Assembly: GCA_036439915.1 (NCBI GenBank)
Contig: GCA_036439915.1_3065.1
Origin: a phage
Reading direction: 5' to 3' (one strand)
Length of the DNA: 64,000 nucleotides
The first letter of the stretch is position 1, and each line of letters starts with the position of its first letter. The position numbers were made by a program, and so were the translations under genes. This document shows positions 37,801 through 45,727 of this stretch, piece by piece. The notes under the pieces are model-generated. The model searched no databases. It had not been told where the DNA came from and saw nothing but the letters and a program-made list of their open reading frames with translations.

Positions 37801-38121
37801 TTATAGCGTAATCCATTCTCGTATTGTCTGAGTTACTACACGTTCACGGGGCTCGACTAATTCAACAGTCGGAACTGCATAATACCAGTCAGAATGGTAA
37901 GAACCTGAGCGAGATTCATTTACAGACACATGAATGTTATGTTTTGGACTAAAATAAACGCACTGCCGATATTGGCATTTGCCATCTTGTACCCAGTCTT
38001 CTATTTCGACAGGTTTAAGATAATCCGAAAAATCGAAATCATAGTTTTCTGAAAATGCATCATGGTCTTCGATGATTTCACTCAGAACTGCATCAACATC
38101 TAATTTATTTTCAATAGTCAT
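37801..38121 (-). CDS. hypothetical protein
   Basis: 106-aa ORF. Confidence 0.45.
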   Translation of the reverse strand: MTIENKLDVDAVLSEIIEDHDAFSENYDFDFSDYLKPVEIEDWVQDGKCQYRQCVYFSPKHNIHVSVNESRSGSYHSDWYYAVPTVELVEPRERVVTQTIREWITL

Positions 38122-38131
38122 TTGTCACCAC

Positions 38132-38341
38132 TTAATTTCGCAATTTATTAAGTTCTTCATAATCAATCCAGGATTCTAATCCTGATGGCAAATCAGATTC
38201 AATTTCCCAAAGAAGCTCTTCAATTTTCTGAAGACGATCTAATTCTTCAGCTGGAATAGTAACCATTGATGGAGTTCTTGATACACTAATATCGTAAATC
38301 ATATTTACCCCAGTTTGACCATACAATCGCCGTATTTCCAT
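38132..38341 (-). CDS. hypothetical small protein
   Basis: 69-aa ORF; true start may be the internal Met. Confidence 0.4.
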   Translation of the reverse strand: MEIRRLYGQTGVNMIYDISVSRTPSMVTIPAEELDRLQKIEELLWEIESDLPSGLESWIDYEELNKLRN

Positions 38342-38520
38342 TTAGAAATAGACTTTTCACCATTAGAATAATAAACTTCGAGTTTAGCACGGCCATTTTT
38401 AATTTGAATAACCTTTGCTGTCATCAAAGTTCCATACCCATAATAAACTGCAACCTCATCACCCACATATACCGCGCTTCCGCGGTAGTCATGGATATAA
38501 TCAGTTCCTTCAAGCATCAT
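38305..38520 (-). CDS. hypothetical small protein
   Basis: 71-aa ORF, ATGA overlap with nrdC. Confidence 0.45.
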   Translation of the reverse strand: MMLEGTDYIHDYRGSAVYVGDEVAVYYGYGTLMTAKVIQIKNGRAKLEVYYSNGEKSISKWKYGDCMVKLG

Positions 38521-38780
38521 TTAAAGTATTCCCGCAATTGGTCAAATCCACCAATATGACTTCCATCAGGAGCAAATACCTGAGGCATCGTCAATCCGAT
38601 TTGAGTATCACGACCCAGTTTAGTCAGAAGCTCAGCGATTTTCTCATCATCAAAAACACCTTTTTCCGGCATAATGTTGATAAATTCAAACGGCTGTTTC
38701 TTCACAGTCAAGAGACGTTTTGCATTATCGCAATACACACATTTATGGATGCTGCTATCATAACCATATACTTTAAACAT
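38517..38780 (-). CDS. nrdC: thioredoxin/glutaredoxin NrdC
   Basis: 87 aa, CVYC redox motif, same size as T4 NrdC. Confidence 0.8.
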   Translation of the reverse strand: MFKVYGYDSSIHKCVYCDNAKRLLTVKKQPFEFINIMPEKGVFDDEKIAELLTKLGRDTQIGLTMPQVFAPDGSHIGGFDQLREYFK

Positions 38781-38781
38781 A

Positions 38782-39024
38782 TTATTCCTTAATTCCTAGT
38801 ACTTGTTTAAAAGTCTCGTTATAATCAAGACTTTGGCCCGTTTGTTCTTTATGTTTGTATATAATATCACTTACTTCTGATAGCATATTTTTATATGAAC
38901 GAGTTAAAGCAGATTTAAGCACGCTGTATCTATCAGGAAATTTACCGTGTTCATTATAATACGCTATTGCTAATTCACGGACTGCCTTTTCAGCAATCTC
39001 CATATATTCTTTACGCTTGGTCAT
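38782..39024 (-). CDS. hypothetical protein (nrdC.1 position)
   Basis: 80-aa ORF. Confidence 0.45.
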
Positions 39025-39328
39025 TTTCTTCTCGGTTAAATCGGTGTTTGCAATGACGACATTTATAACGAAGATTACTAGTCTGCCAATGAATTAATTG
39101 AACCTGTTCAGTACCACATTTTGGGCAGTTCGGAACATTCTTAGAAGCCCTTTCGCGGCGTTCAACCATAACCATAATGGCATCCCAGGCTGGAGGTTTA
39201 AAGTCTAAATCATCGCAACCATGAATCTTTCCACGCATTTCCAGATCGTCTTCTTCACCAGCCATAATAATTTTAATTAGACTGGAATTACTTGAAGCTG
39301 CAATATCTTCTAATAGACGCTTTTTCAT
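39011..39328 (-). CDS. zinc-ribbon protein (nrdC.2 position)
   Basis: 105 aa, CPKCG...CRHC four-Cys ribbon. Confidence 0.5.
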
Positions 39329-40254
39329 TTCAATACCTCAATAGCATTGCGTAAACCATTTGCTTTTGCATTAAGAGCTTTTAACAATTTGGTATGTTCG
39401 GCAATCTGGGCTTCAACTTCAATCAAACGAGCATTGAGATATTCGCGTTCTTCGCTCAGGTTATCAACCTTTTCTACTTTAGGTTCTTTTACAACTGGCT
39501 TATATGTATTAGGGTTCTTCAGTTTAATTAGAATACGTGAACTGTATAACATTGAACCATTATTTTCGGTTTCGTCATACATTTCTACTACGTCCATGAT
39601 TTTTAACATCATGCGGAGTTTATAAGATAACGAACGAATAGTTTTGTTGTGCTTATTAATTTCTCTAGCTGTCATGGTGCCGAGATTACGTGAGTAATAA
39701 TAAGGAACCTGGATATTAATTAATACTGATGAACCACCTGGCTTGTGCGTTACTTCATCAGCAATAACCCAGTCCTTAACATGAACTGTATTTGTACGGT
39801 CATCGCCTGCGGTAAATAGTTTACGAGCATGCTTAAAAAGCATATTAACTTGGTCATTGAATTGACAAGCGAATTTATCAGCAAATTTAGTTTCAGGAAT
39901 GGTAGATAACCAATCAGCCAAATGGGTCTTTTTAACATCGTTAACAATAGTAAATTCAACCAAATCGGTTATAGATGTCGCAGATTTAATGAAGCTCGGC
40001 TTCATAAAGTTTTTAATGTTATCACTAGCTACAGTAGAAGATAACAGACGAGAACGTTTAAACCATTGAAGCAAATTGCCTAACGAATGAGAATAAGCGT
40101 TTTGAGTATCTTTACAGATATGATTTTCCTGGCCAACATATTGAAGGAAATCACGAAGAATATTATTGATTACTGCTCTGTGTCCTATCTGATAATTACG
40201 ATGTTTAGTAATAAGACTATCAAAATAATCAATATAATGTTTACGAGTTTTCAT
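39325..40254 (-). CDS. hypothetical protein with C-terminal coiled coil
   Basis: 309 aa, N-terminus MKTR..., C-terminal heptad-like [21 protein letters not shown]. Confidence 0.55.
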   Translation of the reverse strand: MKTRKHYIDYFDSLITKHRNYQIGHRAVINNILRDFLQYVGQENHICKDTQNAYSHSLGNLLQWFKRSRLLSSTVASDNIKNFMKPSFIKSATSITDLVEFTIVNDVKKTHLADWLSTIPETKFADKFACQFNDQVNMLFKHARKLFTAGDDRTNTVHVKDWVIADEVTHKPGGSSVLINIQVPYYYSRNLGTMTAREINKHNKTIRSLSYKLRMMLKIMDVVEMYDETENNGSMLYSSRILIKLKNPNTYKPVVKEPKVEKVDNLSEEREYLNARLIEVEAQIAEHTKLLKALNAKANGLRNAIEVLK

Positions 40255-40306
40255 ATTCTTCTCACTTGGTTAATGGTTTATACTCCGAGCCATCCTTGGC
40301 TTTAAA

Positions 40307-41308
40307 TTACTTAATTAACTGTAAAGCTTGTTCCAAACGATCAAGACGATTAACAGATTCTTCCCAAATCCTTTTAGCCTGCTCATATTCTTTCTGCGCT
40401 TTATTAGAAATTTCTAGAACTTCTTTATAAGCTTTTTCTAGTGCAATAACTTCTGGACGAATTTCTACCGGTTCAGGTGAATCGTCAAGACATTCCATTA
40501 GTTCCTCAAGGGTAGTTTCTTCTTTAGGAGTATTCACAATTTCATCACATTTTTGTTGGTAAATTTCTTTATTAGTCGGTGAGTACGCGCACTTTACTTC
40601 ACGAAGACTAATTACAATTTTATATCCTTCCCAGCCGCATATATTCTTAAAAGGATATGTATGAATATTTTCTACTGTTTCCATACAAAGTAATGCAGTC
40701 TCTAACTGACGAGTTATAGTGCTAGCAATTGAGAAAAATTTATTAATATTCTTTTGGTTAGCGTTTGGTGTAAAAAATCCATAATTCACAAAAATAGCTA
40801 CTTTATTTTCATCAAGCTCATATTCTTTTACGATAATCATATCAGAAGCCAAAGGATGAATTTGACGATAATCGCCATAACATAATTTAGAAGCTGATTT
40901 TAGAATTTGTCCTTTGAAAAGTCTGAAATTACTAATCCAACGACGAGTAAAAATATTCTCAGGGTCTTCTTTATTATTAAGATGATAAGAATTAACATCA
41001 CCGAACCAATTATATCCTACTACATCTTTGGTTCGTTTAATTTCTTTCCCAAAATTACCAAGAATATCCCGATTAACCAAATATGAAAGAAGACGAGACT
41101 CTTTAAAGGTTTTCTTGATAACATCTTTATCTACACGGCTAGAAATTTTACGAATTTCATGAATAAATTTAGTAGAAGAAACAATACTTGCATCAACACT
41201 ATTGAGCCATTGATTGATAATAGAAAGAACGATATTTTGACCAAACATCGGTATAGCTTTATCATCAATAACGCTATTGAATGATTTGATATATTCGTTA
41301 CGAGTCAT
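40307..41308 (-). CDS. hypothetical protein with C-terminal coiled coil
   Basis: 333 aa from Met downstream of own early promoter; GAGGAG SD; coiled-coil tail. Confidence 0.55.
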   Translation of the reverse strand: MTRNEYIKSFNSVIDDKAIPMFGQNIVLSIINQWLNSVDASIVSSTKFIHEIRKISSRVDKDVIKKTFKESRLLSYLVNRDILGNFGKEIKRTKDVVGYNWFGDVNSYHLNNKEDPENIFTRRWISNFRLFKGQILKSASKLCYGDYRQIHPLASDMIIVKEYELDENKVAIFVNYGFFTPNANQKNINKFFSIASTITRQLETALLCMETVENIHTYPFKNICGWEGYKIVISLREVKCAYSPTNKEIYQQKCDEIVNTPKEETTLEELMECLDDSPEPVEIRPEVIALEKAYKEVLEISNKAQKEYEQAKRIWEESVNRLDRLEQALQLIK

Positions 41309-41336
41309 AATAATCTCCTCAGTAGAAAGTAAGAAC

Positions 41337-41366
41337 ATTATACCACATCCTTGTGGTAAAGTAAAC
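41337..41366 (-). promoter_or_regulatory. sigma70-type early promoter
   Basis: GTTTAC, 18 bp, TGGTATAAT on minus strand. Confidence 0.6.
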
Positions 41367-42388
41367 TAGTTCAGTGCATTTAATGCATTGTTCAGTTTAG
41401 AACGTTGCTTCGTGAGATTTTTGACTTTTTCTTGTGCTTTTTCTAGCATCTTTTCAGCTTCTAACACTTCATTAGTTGCTTTAACGAGTTCATCATCTAC
41501 TGCCTTAAGGGACTTCTCAATCGCATCCGCGTGCCATTTTTCAACAGGTTTAAGACTCGGATTTTCAACAGGAAGAAAATTCACTTTATTGAATTTCCAT
41601 GCATCTTTATTACCTGAACTATACATCCAAAATTTAGGATCATTTGACGAGTAATTAGATAAATTTAAGGTATCTTGTACTTCCTGCTTTTTCTCTTGTG
41701 TAACTTCGTCCTTTCTCAAAAAATCGTATTTAAATGAAACGATCATATCAAGTTCATACGTTGTTGTATGTTCCCAATTTCGCTCAAAACGAGGTAAAAT
41801 CTTAGACTGAACAGCGGCAACAACATCCATATACTTAAATGCTTCTGTCAACTGCGATTTAAGGCATTCACAAATTGAAAGAGAATTTTTTGTATTAGGT
41901 TTAAAGCTAATTCGTGCGGTTCTATTATTTTCTTTTAATGGTCTTACTTCCATCTGAAGAGTATAACCATCAAATTTCAGGTTCTTTAAGTTAATATCAG
42001 AACCTTTTAATCGACTCGCAGTTGATAAAATTTGCTTTAACTGTCTACGGAACAGAGCAATAAATCTCCATTCAATACGATAATGATTTGGATTGAAAAA
42101 TCCAGATGATAAATCGACCTTACTTTGACCAACGCCTTGAACAAATAGAGGATTTTTATAATCAATAGTTTTACAGAAATCGGTGAGCTGCTCACGAGCC
42201 GTCATTTGTGTAATATACCCTGCTTTACTAAAATTACGCACCCATTCGCTGCTATTCAAATATTTAAAGTGATGAATAGCACGATTAACTTTATCAAGGT
42301 CTAAATTATTTTCGCACAAAAATGTCATAACATCACGAGTATCGCTGGCACTACGAACCATATCTTCAATTTGAGAACGAGTTTTCAT
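41366..42388 (-). CDS. hypothetical protein with C-terminal coiled coil
   Basis: 340 aa, N-terminus MKTR..., coiled-coil tail. Confidence 0.55.
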   Translation of the reverse strand: MKTRSQIEDMVRSASDTRDVMTFLCENNLDLDKVNRAIHHFKYLNSSEWVRNFSKAGYITQMTAREQLTDFCKTIDYKNPLFVQGVGQSKVDLSSGFFNPNHYRIEWRFIALFRRQLKQILSTASRLKGSDINLKNLKFDGYTLQMEVRPLKENNRTARISFKPNTKNSLSICECLKSQLTEAFKYMDVVAAVQSKILPRFERNWEHTTTYELDMIVSFKYDFLRKDEVTQEKKQEVQDTLNLSNYSSNDPKFWMYSSGNKDAWKFNKVNFLPVENPSLKPVEKWHADAIEKSLKAVDDELVKATNEVLEAEKMLEKAQEKVKNLTKQRSKLNNALNALN

Positions 42389-42396
42389 GGTATTCC

Positions 42397-43308
42397 TTAA
42401 GATTTAAGTAAATCAACAATTTTAATTAACTTTTCACGCTCAGATTTAGCTTTACTACTCAATCCAGATAGTCTGAAAATTTCATCGTCATACTGTTGAA
42501 TAGAAATATTCAGCTCTTCAATCTGTTTATTAAAATAATCAATTTGTTCAGAATGTTTTTCATTACTACGAACTGGTACAGGTTTCGTAGGCAATTTAGT
42601 TGAACTGGATTCATCCGGGCGATAAATTAAAATACAACTTGAACCAATCGGGCATTTTGCACCAGATGAATATTCCAGTGTTCCAGCTTCTTTTAAAATT
42701 TCAAAAGCTAAACAGAGATGATGTCCCATATTAACATAATCTGTAGAGCGAGCTCTGATGTAATAATCATCTCCGCGAATACTAAATTTAAAGCATTTAA
42801 GGTCTTCTGTATTATTGGTCTTAAAAATCATTTGTTTATCTAGACCTTTAGCTAATCGAGCGCCTAATGCTAATAATCGTCGTTGATTTTCCCACAAATC
42901 CGCAATCATTTGGTCAAATGATAATTTCGGCATTAATCGACCATAAAGGTCATATCCTTTATTATAATTACGAAGGATTTCACTCGCATTAATGCGAGAC
43001 AACGCTCCAATTTTATTAAGGGCTTTCATAATGCGATTAGATAAACTCATTCCAGATCCGCTTGTTCGCTGCAAATGTTTTTCTAATCCAAATCCAATAT
43101 CAACTTTAAACTTATCTAAAATTTCGGCATGAACATCTTTATCAATAACATTCAAATCCAAAGTTGGGTTAAATCTATGAAAAAATTTATCTGGCTCTCC
43201 ACGACGAAGTACAGTCCATTCATTCATCATTTTTTTATTAACTAAAGATTTAATTACTGCATTGACATTATTAATTACTACTGACATATTTTCCTCACTC
43301 AATTTCAA
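42397..43308 (-). CDS. hypothetical protein with C-terminal coiled coil
   Basis: 303 aa, coiled-coil tail KSEREKLIKIVDLLKS. Confidence 0.55.
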   Translation of the reverse strand: MKLSEENMSVVINNVNAVIKSLVNKKMMNEWTVLRRGEPDKFFHRFNPTLDLNVIDKDVHAEILDKFKVDIGFGLEKHLQRTSGSGMSLSNRIMKALNKIGALSRINASEILRNYNKGYDLYGRLMPKLSFDQMIADLWENQRRLLALGARLAKGLDKQMIFKTNNTEDLKCFKFSIRGDDYYIRARSTDYVNMGHHLCLAFEILKEAGTLEYSSGAKCPIGSSCILIYRPDESSSTKLPTKPVPVRSNEKHSEQIDYFNKQIEELNISIQQYDDEIFRLSGLSSKAKSEREKLIKIVDLLKS

Positions 43309-43711
43309 TTTTACTAAATATACAGAATATACAGAATATGATTGAACAGACTACATAAGCACCACACACGGATTGAACTAATACCATCCCAAAGAACCAA
43401 ACAATATTATCAAACAGTGTCTGTTTTACGTCGAAAGGACGTAAACTTACAGTAATATTATCACCTTTTTCTATTGAAGAATACATCTCTGGGGAAATAT
43501 ATTCACTAAATCTATAACCGTCTTTGAGTTCATATACGGCAATAAACGATAAACTAGACCCTTTTCCTTGTGTTCCTGTAATGGTATTAACTACAGTAAC
43601 ATCATAATCTTTATAATGCATATAATCATTAATTGCGTAATAACCATATGCAACTACTACACATAAACAACATATCAATAAATTCAATCTTTTAATTATC
43701 AACTGTTTCAT
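43295..43711 (-). CDS. membrane protein
   Basis: 138 aa with N- and C-terminal hydrophobic segments. Confidence 0.5.
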   Translation of the reverse strand: MKQLIIKRLNLLICCLCVVVAYGYYAINDYMHYKDYDVTVVNTITGTQGKGSSLSFIAVYELKDGYRFSEYISPEMYSSIEKGDNITVSLRPFDVKQTLFDNIVWFFGMVLVQSVCGAYVVCSIIFCIFCIFSKIEIE

Positions 43712-43766
43712 AATAATCTCAATTAAAAGGGCTTAGAACCATTATACCATCCTTGGTATAAAGCGG

Positions 43767-44294
43767 TTATGCGAGTACCGTCTTTAACCGTTCTTCAAAC
43801 TTCCGAAGAGTATTTTGGCGTTCAGCTCTTTGCTTTTTGTAAGTTTCAATACGCTCTGAAATGAGAGAGTATCGTTCATTTACTGATTCTTTCATAAAAT
43901 CAGGAATTTCACGAGAAGCTTTAATCTCGTCAAATTTATCAATAACAGCTTGCTCTTCAGCAATTAAGTTATCATACATTAAAATATCTTTCTTGATGAA
44001 CTCAATATCTTTTTGAGTTACACGAGATAATTTAGATGCTTTATCCTTTTTGTACTGTTCGTTAGTATCACGAGACCAATGTAATGTACGATTTTTATTC
44101 GTATTCTTGTAAATTTCTACAATACCGATCTCATCAATAATAACGATCCAATTCCAACGTGATTTATAAATTTGTCCTCCATCAACAGTGATTTCACCTC
44201 CGATTGAGATGTCGTTAAAGAACTTGCTTTGTGCTTCAGATTTAAATTTACCATCGTTGTAATTTACCAAGTTGAAAATATCTTTAGCGTTCAT
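43767..44294 (-). CDS. hypothetical protein
   Basis: 175-aa ORF directly downstream of early promoter. Confidence 0.5.
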   Translation of the reverse strand: MNAKDIFNLVNYNDGKFKSEAQSKFFNDISIGGEITVDGGQIYKSRWNWIVIIDEIGIVEIYKNTNKNRTLHWSRDTNEQYKKDKASKLSRVTQKDIEFIKKDILMYDNLIAEEQAVIDKFDEIKASREIPDFMKESVNERYSLISERIETYKKQRAERQNTLRKFEERLKTVLA

Positions 44295-44322
44295 TTTCTG
44301 TTCCTCCGTAGTTGATAGTTGT

Positions 44323-44352
44323 ATAGTACCACAGAGGAACAGTCTTGTAAAC
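44323..44352 (-). promoter_or_regulatory. sigma70-type early promoter
   Basis: GTTTAC, 18 bp, TGGTACTAT. Confidence 0.6.
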
Positions 44353-44354
44353 CA

Positions 44355-44669
44355 CTAAAAGAAACTTCTTTCACAATTTTTTCCACTGAACCATGCGCTT
44401 ACTGCTTTCTTAGTCTCAGGAGCAGTGTTATCCATAAACCATTCAAAGGCAGCCTTTTTATGATTCTGGAGGGCTTCTCGGGCTTTAATCTGCTCACGGT
44501 CTATTAACACTAACATATGAGCCTTTCTTGTCACCATGGGCTTCTTATGATTTTTTGAATACTCCCAGTCATTTGTCCATCGCATTGTCGTTGCGAACTG
44601 AAATACTGCTTCTTTAATTTTAGTTTCGTAAATTTCACGAGCCTTTGAGTATAACATCACTACCTCCAT
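44355..44669 (-). CDS. hypothetical protein
   Basis: 104-aa ORF. Confidence 0.45.
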   Translation of the reverse strand: MEVVMLYSKAREIYETKIKEAVFQFATTMRWTNDWEYSKNHKKPMVTRKAHMLVLIDREQIKAREALQNHKKAAFEWFMDNTAPETKKAVSAWFSGKNCERSFF

Positions 44670-44758
44670 TCACCAGTTTAATTCTAGTCATCTTTTTAAT
44701 GGCAGTCCATATAATCTATTTCTGAACTGCCTTTTTGTCATAGAAGTCCTCTTATGAA

Positions 44759-45727
44759 TTATTTCAGAAGAGTAACTTCAGCGATTTCTTCCCAACCGTT
44801 TTTGTCGGTCATAATAAAGTCAGCAAGATAAAGTGCAGTACGCAGTGAAACATTGCGTAAACGATTAACATTGACTTTCATCCATGATAATGCTTTATAA
44901 GTTTCTTCATCAGAAAGACCGCGCTTTTGCATCATGTCAGTTGAAAGAATAACATCTTCAACCCTGACCATAATTTCTTCATTAGTGTGAACACCCAAAT
45001 CCAAATAAACCGAGCGGGACACTAATGCTTGTAAATGTGGAGCAAGTTTAGTACCACGGTCTAATTCGCGGTCAATGTCAACGTTTGTGATAAAAACAAT
45101 CGTTCCTTTAAATTCAAACTCACGGTCAATGCCTTTTTCTTCTAAGTAAGAAGATGCGGTGCTCCAGCAGACTTTACGGGTCTCTCCAGTGTCCAGAGCA
45201 GCTTTTAGAAGATTAAGAATGTCCATATCAGAGAAAACATCCACATCATCAATCAAAAGGACAGAATTCTCTTCACGATTATTCCAAAGTTGTTCATAAA
45301 GACCGATACCGGAGATTTTACCATTAATGCTTTTATATTCAATGTATCCATTATCATTTGCTTTATTTAAAGCTTTATCTAAAGAATACGTTTTACCAAT
45401 ACCCGCCGCACCAGAGATAATTAATGAACGAATGTTTCCATTAATAATACCATTCGTCATCATTCCCATAACATTAAATCTTTTATTAATGCGGGTTTTC
45501 ATATCTTCATATGATTCTTTAACTTCTTCAACTTTTACACCATCATATGAAATGTCTGATTTGTAAACCCAAACACCACGACGTTTACCGTCAATTTCAA
45601 CAAAAACTTTACCATCTCCTTGTGCATCTACCGGAGCATTATCTGGGAACCATTCGCCTAAGAGCTCAAAAGTTCCAGAGATTTCTTTACCGAAGTAGAT
45701 ACCCTTATTGATAGTTACAGTTTTCAT
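44759..45727 (-). CDS. P-loop ATPase (AAA-like), nrdC.10 position
   Basis: 322 aa from internal Met after promoter leader; Walker A GAAGIGKT, Walker B VLLIDDVD. Confidence 0.6.
   Translation of the reverse strand: MKTVTINKGIYFGKEISGTFELLGEWFPDNAPVDAQGDGKVFVEIDGKRRGVWVYKSDISYDGVKVEEVKESYEDMKTRINKRFNVMGMMTNGIINGNIRSLIISGAAGIGKTYSLDKALNKANDNGYIEYKSINGKISGIGLYEQLWNNREENSVLLIDDVDVFSDMDILNLLKAALDTGETRKVCWSTASSYLEEKGIDREFEFKGTIVFITNVDIDRELDRGTKLAPHLQALVSRSVYLDLGVHTNEEIMVRVEDVILSTDMMQKRGLSDEETYKALSWMKVNVNRLRNVSLRTALYLADFIMTDKNGWEEIAEVTLLK

Follow-up and report, generated by a model that had tools for sequence, protein, structure and literature searches.

Tandem paralogues NrdC.3 to NrdC.6 of a Tequatrovirus form one superfamily with coiled-coil-type tails that includes the orthologue of the T4 Dsr1 antagonist NrdC.5

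The main model for phage–host arms races is provided by the T4-like phages, which also find wide use in phage therapy, and for most of their early accessory genes we know of no function. Four consecutive open reading frames (ORFs) of this kind, the orthologues of nrdC.3, nrdC.4, nrdC.5 and nrdC.6, were analysed in a 64 kb stretch of phage DNA (contig GCA_036439915.1_3065.1; the whole stretch is referred to below as the window). The closest described system is T4 nrdC.5 itself, which, when supplied in trans, allows a deletion mutant to plate again on dsr1-carrying cells (Srikant, Guegler and Laub, eLife 2022, PMC9391042). Dsr1 is a SIR2-type defence protein that senses the phage major capsid protein (PMC13581612). 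The original prediction, made from the letters of the window, had described the four ORFs as having no assigned function; for nrdC.5 this was superseded by the published antagonism of Dsr1. The nrdC.5 product of the window is 94.4% identical to T4 NrdC.5 over the full length, with 19 substitutions of which six fall in the coiled-coil tail; its gene has the same position in the genome and is early, as in T4. The window allele is probably anti-Dsr1 as well, given the published genetics of its 94%-identical T4 orthologue. The other three ORFs are remote paralogues of T4 NrdC.5, with ∼10–24% identity.

Several neighbours of the array have published anti-defence functions. The anti-OLD inhibitor gp49.2 (PMC13096335) has a probable counterpart in the window at 37801-38121. 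In the HIDEN-SEQ preprint (bioRxiv 10.1101/2025.11.20.689424), nrdC.1 (38782-39024 in the window) is reported as anti-Septu and bas37_0203 as an inhibitor of Druantia III. By synteny, bas37_0203 would be the nrdC.8 orthologue, as it has the nrdC.8 position and the same length in the Bas37 gene table. In the window nrdC.8 (43767-44294) encodes 175 residues with a C-terminal heptad segment and gave no profile match to the NrdC.3–NrdC.6 family. The products gp49.2, NrdC.1 and NrdC.8 resemble the four proteins studied here in belonging to the same early-transcribed cluster, in being dispensable on Escherichia coli K-12 and in being without known domains, but they are small (80–175 residues) and are not family members (no match in a hidden Markov model search of the window). 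Outside this cluster, DSAD1 of SPbeta-like phages (PMC10973363, PMC11087589) neutralises a SIR2-type sensor that depletes nicotinamide adenine dinucleotide (NAD+) and offers a functional parallel to the binding proposed for NrdC.5. The two differ in architecture and in target (DSR2 for DSAD1, Dsr1 for NrdC.5), and no sequence relationship was found between them.

The window belongs to a Tequatrovirus, and the 4.9 kb region around the array matches 745 phage records, mostly of Escherichia and Shigella Tequatrovirus, at ∼96% identity. All genes of the nrdC.3–nrdC.6 region are carried on the minus strand. Orthologue names were assigned by alignment to the annotated T4T genome, as follows.

39325..40254, minus strand: nrdC.3 orthologue, 309 residues, 61% identity to T4 NrdC.3
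40307..41308, minus strand: nrdC.4 orthologue, 333 residues, 96.7% identity to T4 NrdC.4
41366..42388, minus strand: nrdC.5 orthologue, 340 residues, 94.4% identity to T4 NrdC.5
42397..43287, minus strand: nrdC.6 orthologue, 296 residues, 98% identity to T4 NrdC.6

These four ORFs constitute one superfamily of diverged tandem paralogues, in which NrdC.6 is the most remote member and is joined by a link of moderate strength. NrdC.3 and NrdC.4 both belong to phrog_1435 (E = 7.5e-117 and 1.2e-168, respectively) and are directly similar to each other (BLASTP E = 1.6e-7, 24% identity over 270 residues; hhalign 97.4%). Near-identical nrdC.4 representatives, for example the 97%-identical P0057, carry PF26897; this membership was read from the representatives, the Pfam copy that was scanned being without that model. 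NrdC.5 matched Pfam DUF7235 (PF23882) with E = 3.2e-128 and 428 bits (gathering score 30), over model positions 1-307 of 307, and none of the other three ORFs matched this model. Its similarity to the NrdC.4 family profile was initially borderline (hhalign 42%). The NrdC.3/4 profile was enlarged with three divergent members, including P0232, taken from an exhaustive profile search, and with this enlarged profile the NrdC.5 family aligned at 94.8% (E = 5e-8, 247 columns). Without the coiled-coil tails the alignment of NrdC.3/4 with NrdC.5 was retained at 75% (E = 2.5e-5).

NrdC.6 matched phrog_2257 (E = 1.1e-151), and its 98%-identical representatives carry PF26899; no direct sequence signal linked it to the other families (hhalign at most 4%). 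The link was obtained through bridging proteins and predicted structures. A single-copy protein of Enterobacter phage IME523, encoded at the syntenic position, matched the NrdC.3/4 profile (95.5%, 251 columns) as well as NrdC.6-family proteins (BLASTP E = 6e-8, 195 residues), and a profile built from three bridging sequences reached 97% to NrdC.5 and 64% (224 columns) to NrdC.6. AlphaFold2 models covered NrdC.4 (predicted local distance difference test score, pLDDT, 81.5) and NrdC.6 (pLDDT 76). In both, N-terminal helices are followed, in identical order, by a pair of short helices in succession, a hairpin, one long helix, a second hairpin, a disordered linker and a terminal helix. In BFVD both models matched the same uncharacterised Straboviridae proteins of 300–335 residues with probability 1.0, the common matches being from Pectobacterium phage PM2 (6e-7 and 5e-7 for the two models), Enterobacter phage IME523 (5e-7 and 6e-7) and Acinetobacter phages fHyAci03, Acj9 and Acj61; the NrdC.6 model also matched an NrdC.3-type protein (E = 1.9e-3). 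A helix motif, I/L-L-x-x-A/G-S/A-K/R-L-x-x-G-D, was defined post hoc; it occurs once per ORF at positions 120–138 and is absent from the other ORFs of the window, in which the hidden Markov model search found no further family member.

Because the NrdC.3/4–NrdC.5 signal outlasts removal of the tails, and because NrdC.6 is reached through the IME523 bridge and common fold matches, the four ORFs were placed in a single superfamily. The original prediction of a tandem paralogous family whose members combine a globular N-terminal part with a coiled-coil tail is thereby supported by sequence, profiles, bridges and predicted structure. Its proposed alignment of the four proteins joined NrdC.3 to NrdC.4 by BLASTP and brought in NrdC.5 by hhalign; NrdC.6 gave no direct signal and was connected through bridges and structure instead, the two models agreeing in element order and in their BFVD matches. 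Four consecutive large ORFs (296–340 residues) are indeed present.

The C-terminal tails are located as follows.

39328..39471, minus strand: nrdC.3 coiled-coil-type tail, residues 262–309, continuous heptads, 86% hydrophobic a/d positions
40310..40456, minus strand: nrdC.4 coiled-coil-type tail, residues 285–333, heptads, single model helix 285–332
41369..41539, minus strand: nrdC.5 coiled-coil-type tail, residues 284–340, heptads, 94% hydrophobic a/d positions
42400..42561, minus strand: nrdC.6 coiled-coil-type tail, residues 243–296, heptads, model helices 243–272 and 278–295

Each C-terminus forms one unbroken heptad register of 48–57 residues, in which 80–94% of the a/d positions are hydrophobic (18–29% elsewhere) and 33–39% of the residues are charged. 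The best 28-residue heptad window exceeded shuffled sequences in 200/200, 196/200, 200/200 and 200/200 cases for the four ORFs, and the heptad-like tails of the original prediction were recovered in all four. Coiled-coil proteins were taken to show a hydrophobic a/d core over at least four heptads in a helix; the periodicity was present in all four tails, and helices were modelled for NrdC.4 (48 residues) and NrdC.6, preceded in both models by a disordered linker. All four C-termini end in a similar motif, R/K-x-x-L-x-x-A/V-I/L-x-x-L-K. The common build consists of a helical N-terminal region, a central α/β domain, a disordered linker rich in Pro, Lys and Glu and a C-terminal amphipathic helix of 6–8 heptads. 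From its heptad pattern, this C-terminal helix is most likely responsible for oligomerisation.

The family does not extend beyond T4-like phages (Straboviridae). When the NrdC.3/4 profile was run against 1.84 billion representatives, ten matches were returned (four full-length, the rest fragments), all of the same family, and there was no bacterial homologue among them. Comparison across T4-like genera, as had been suggested for these ORFs, gave a copy-number series of one, three and four: a single copy in Kanagawavirus, Marfavirus and Jiaodavirus; three in Mosigvirus (.6-,.5- and.3-like) and in JS98/VR-type loci (L006-L014;.6-,.5- and.4-like); and four in Tequatrovirus. No members were detectable among the syntenic ORFs of ∼230–300 residues in Aeromonas phage Aes508 and Acinetobacter phage DLP2 or in the 262-residue ORF of Klebsiella phage FRZ284. 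The nrdC-syntenic region of Aes508 (L018, 15205-16677), where no family member was detectable, encodes a nicotinamide phosphoribosyltransferase, the type of enzyme by which phages rebuild NAD+ against NAD-depleting defences.

NrdC.3, NrdC.4 and NrdC.6 are each found in ∼550–750 sequenced phages, and phage records contain hundreds of intact copies of the four genes. The nrdC.3 gene stands apart in its variation: its product is 61% identical to that of T4, against 87–99% for the neighbouring genes, and three allele classes were distinguished among 654 phage records. Nucleotide identity to T4 falls to 57–63% only across ∼40023-39427, stands at 76% in the neighbouring bin, which extends to 40173, and is at least 94% in the flanks. 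At the protein level the N-terminal 80 and C-terminal 45 residues are conserved and the central domain is hypervariable. The core of nrdC.3 is replaced as a cassette at ∼60% nucleotide identity, a type of variation typical of arms-race genes, as is the difference in copy number between genera. The ratio of nonsynonymous to synonymous substitution rates (dN/dS) was 0.04–0.32 across all four genes, indicating purifying selection, and the gene-wide values gave no evidence of positive selection in any of them. Roughly one in four related records lacks nrdC.4; the gene is deleted in a 167 kb contig (P0056) that carries an in-frame nrdC.5::nrdC.3 fusion and is split by a frameshift in L005 (7971-9003). 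In Shigella phage Sf25 (P0120) an internal tandem duplication of ∼82 residues extends NrdC.6 to 378 residues in total.

Since NrdC.3, NrdC.4 and NrdC.6 belong to the same family as the published Dsr1 antagonist NrdC.5, they become counter-defence candidates. Pfam, PADLOC and PDB sequence searches of the four ORFs returned nothing informative beyond DUF7235 and no sign of an enzyme. The reading that we favour, with a probability of roughly 60%, is that the array arose by expansion of a family of coiled-coil proteins that are made early and inhibit host immunity by non-enzymatic means, at differing targets. Transcription of the genes, from early and middle promoters, precedes replication, and NrdC.5 would neutralise the host SIR2-type NADase Dsr1, as its T4 orthologue does by experiment. 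The other members would likewise inhibit host immune proteins stoichiometrically and not as enzymes, the central domain setting target specificity and the coiled coil providing multivalency. Duplication from one to three to four copies, together with allele replacement in nrdC.3, may have diversified the range of targets. What we infer is that NrdC.3, NrdC.4 and NrdC.6 also act in counter-defence, that binding is direct and that the proteins oligomerise.

Several points weigh against this proposal. NrdC.5 is the only one of the four with an experimental link to defence, and its direct binding to Dsr1 is an analogy and not a result. Oligomerisation is proposed from the heptads alone, and NrdC.6 is attached to the family by moderate scores (hhalign 64%, BLASTP 43 bits) and predicted structures. 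All gene-average dN/dS values are below 1, and NrdC.6 is strongly conserved (0.04–0.14), unlike a typical arms-race gene. Finally, two comparisons of the HIDEN-SEQ preprint show no phenotype for nrdC.3–nrdC.6, and its main text names nrdC.1 as the sole nrdC gene (10.1101/2025.11.20.689424).

The alternative that best withstands the evidence, although we consider it unlikely, is that NrdC.5 alone acts in counter-defence and that the other three are early host-takeover or housekeeping accessories with conserved host targets, or slowly decaying duplicates. The high conservation of NrdC.6 fits such a role, as does the lack of phenotype for nrdC.3, nrdC.4 and nrdC.6 in those two comparisons, and the loss, frameshift and fusion-associated deletion of nrdC.4 would suit decay. 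Set against this, the transposon data of the same preprint have nrdC.3–nrdC.6 as non-essential on E. coli K-12 in both T4 and Bas37 (10.1101/2025.11.20.689424), so that all four are dispensable there; the array sits among four published anti-defence genes; purifying selection speaks against decay; and allele replacement in nrdC.3 resembles that of host-range genes.

A more elaborate form of the inhibitor proposal, which we regard as doubtful, starts from a fold resemblance of the central domain to tail terminators. The four proteins would make up a modular kit of sensor blockers in which a virion-type (tail-terminator-like) central domain mimics the structural proteins that are sensed and each paralogue or allele silences a different defence. 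The near-identical end motif of the C-termini would allow mixed coiled-coil oligomers, giving a multivalent early ‘shield’ complex. Less probable still is the related explanation that the central domain derives from a tail-terminator (lambda gpU-like) fold and that the proteins are early decoys of a virion protein that occupy immune sensors for structural proteins. Compared with tail terminators (lambda gpU/DUF3168-like fold), NrdC.4 comes from an early, non-virion gene and carries an extra helical N-terminal domain as well as a coiled coil; sequence similarity is absent, and the fold score is too low for a claim of homology. Convergence of architecture (coiled-coil composition and size) without common descent is the least probable of all, since the separation into three Pfam families, the non-significant direct BLASTP comparisons of every pair except NrdC.3/NrdC.4 and the very low hhalign values of NrdC.6 are outweighed by an NrdC.5–NrdC.3/4 signal that survives removal of the coiled coil, by syntenic single-copy bridging proteins with matches to the NrdC.3/4 family as well as to that of NrdC.6 and by the identical element order and common BFVD matches of two independent models.

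Two promoter-like sites accompany the array that we interpret as a family of immune inhibitors.

41337..41365, minus strand: T4 early-promoter-like site directly upstream of nrdC.4, GTTTAC-N17-TATAAT with TG
43741..43764, minus strand: T4 middle-promoter-like site upstream of nrdC.7, nrdC.6 and nrdC.5, GCTT-N14-TATAAT

The equivalent sites are annotated in phage SA20RB as an early and a middle promoter, respectively; the member that had been credited with its own early promoter is thus nrdC.4. Three minus-strand hairpins with an identical hexaloop, AAGGAT, were located at 43742-43761, 41341-41358 and 40288-40301 (stems of 7, 6 and 4 bp). Each lies in a gap between genes, upstream of nrdC.7, nrdC.4 or nrdC.3, and two coincide in part with promoter −10 boxes. 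The remainder of the 64 kb contains no such hairpin, against an expectation of 0.18, and CCAAGGATGG occurs exactly twice where 0.07 would be expected. The hairpins could be remnants of a duplicated unit or a regulatory element. An Rfam scan of 38000-45000 found no RNA family.

The start of nrdC.6 was assigned to the ATG at 43287, which is preceded by GAGGAAA, and all homologues start with MSVVINN. The in-frame TTG at 43308 lies upstream of this ATG and was rejected, which corrects the fourth ORF as first delimited (42397..43308). For nrdC.4 the start at 41308 was retained, MTRNEYI being invariant among homologues, and a longer version from ATG 41338 was rejected because this codon lies inside the −10 box of the promoter. 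The two ORFs noted earlier as beginning with MKTR are nrdC.3 and nrdC.5; NrdC.4 begins with MTRNEY. The zinc-ribbon protein reported to precede the array is nrdC.2 (39011-39328): a CxxC...CxxC signature was seen and all Pfam matches were sub-threshold. Its start overlaps the stop of nrdC.3 (ATGA), which suggests translational coupling of the two genes. The nrdC.2 product is variable, with 87% identity to T4, 67–70% to other close relatives and lengths of 98–129 residues.

‘Thioredoxin’ is the label of nrdC.3–nrdC.6, nrdC.10 and nrdC.11 in many phage records, which also enter one gene as ‘Mur ligase domain-containing protein’. The thioredoxin label was rejected for the four ORFs, none of which gave a thioredoxin or glutaredoxin Pfam match at E up to 1 and whose predicted folds are unrelated; it appears to have spread from the gene name nrdC.x. 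Matches in the PDB to designed helical-repeat proteins (E ≃ 1e-7, query residues 13–71) were compositional and were discarded.

The genes themselves and one function, the anti-Dsr1 activity of NrdC.5, were already known. New are the union of three DUF families in one superfamily, the copy-number series, the cassette replacement in nrdC.3 and the fold resemblance. By kinship with the only known Dsr1 antagonist, three orphan genes, those of NrdC.3, NrdC.4 and NrdC.6, become concrete counter-defence candidates, and they are located inside an anti-defence gene cluster (gp49.2 and the nrdC.1 and nrdC.8 orthologues). The variable central domain and constant coiled coil provide a defined domain plan for dissection, and the series from one to three to four copies, with the swapped core of nrdC.3, would constitute a natural experiment on how an anti-immune repertoire expands.

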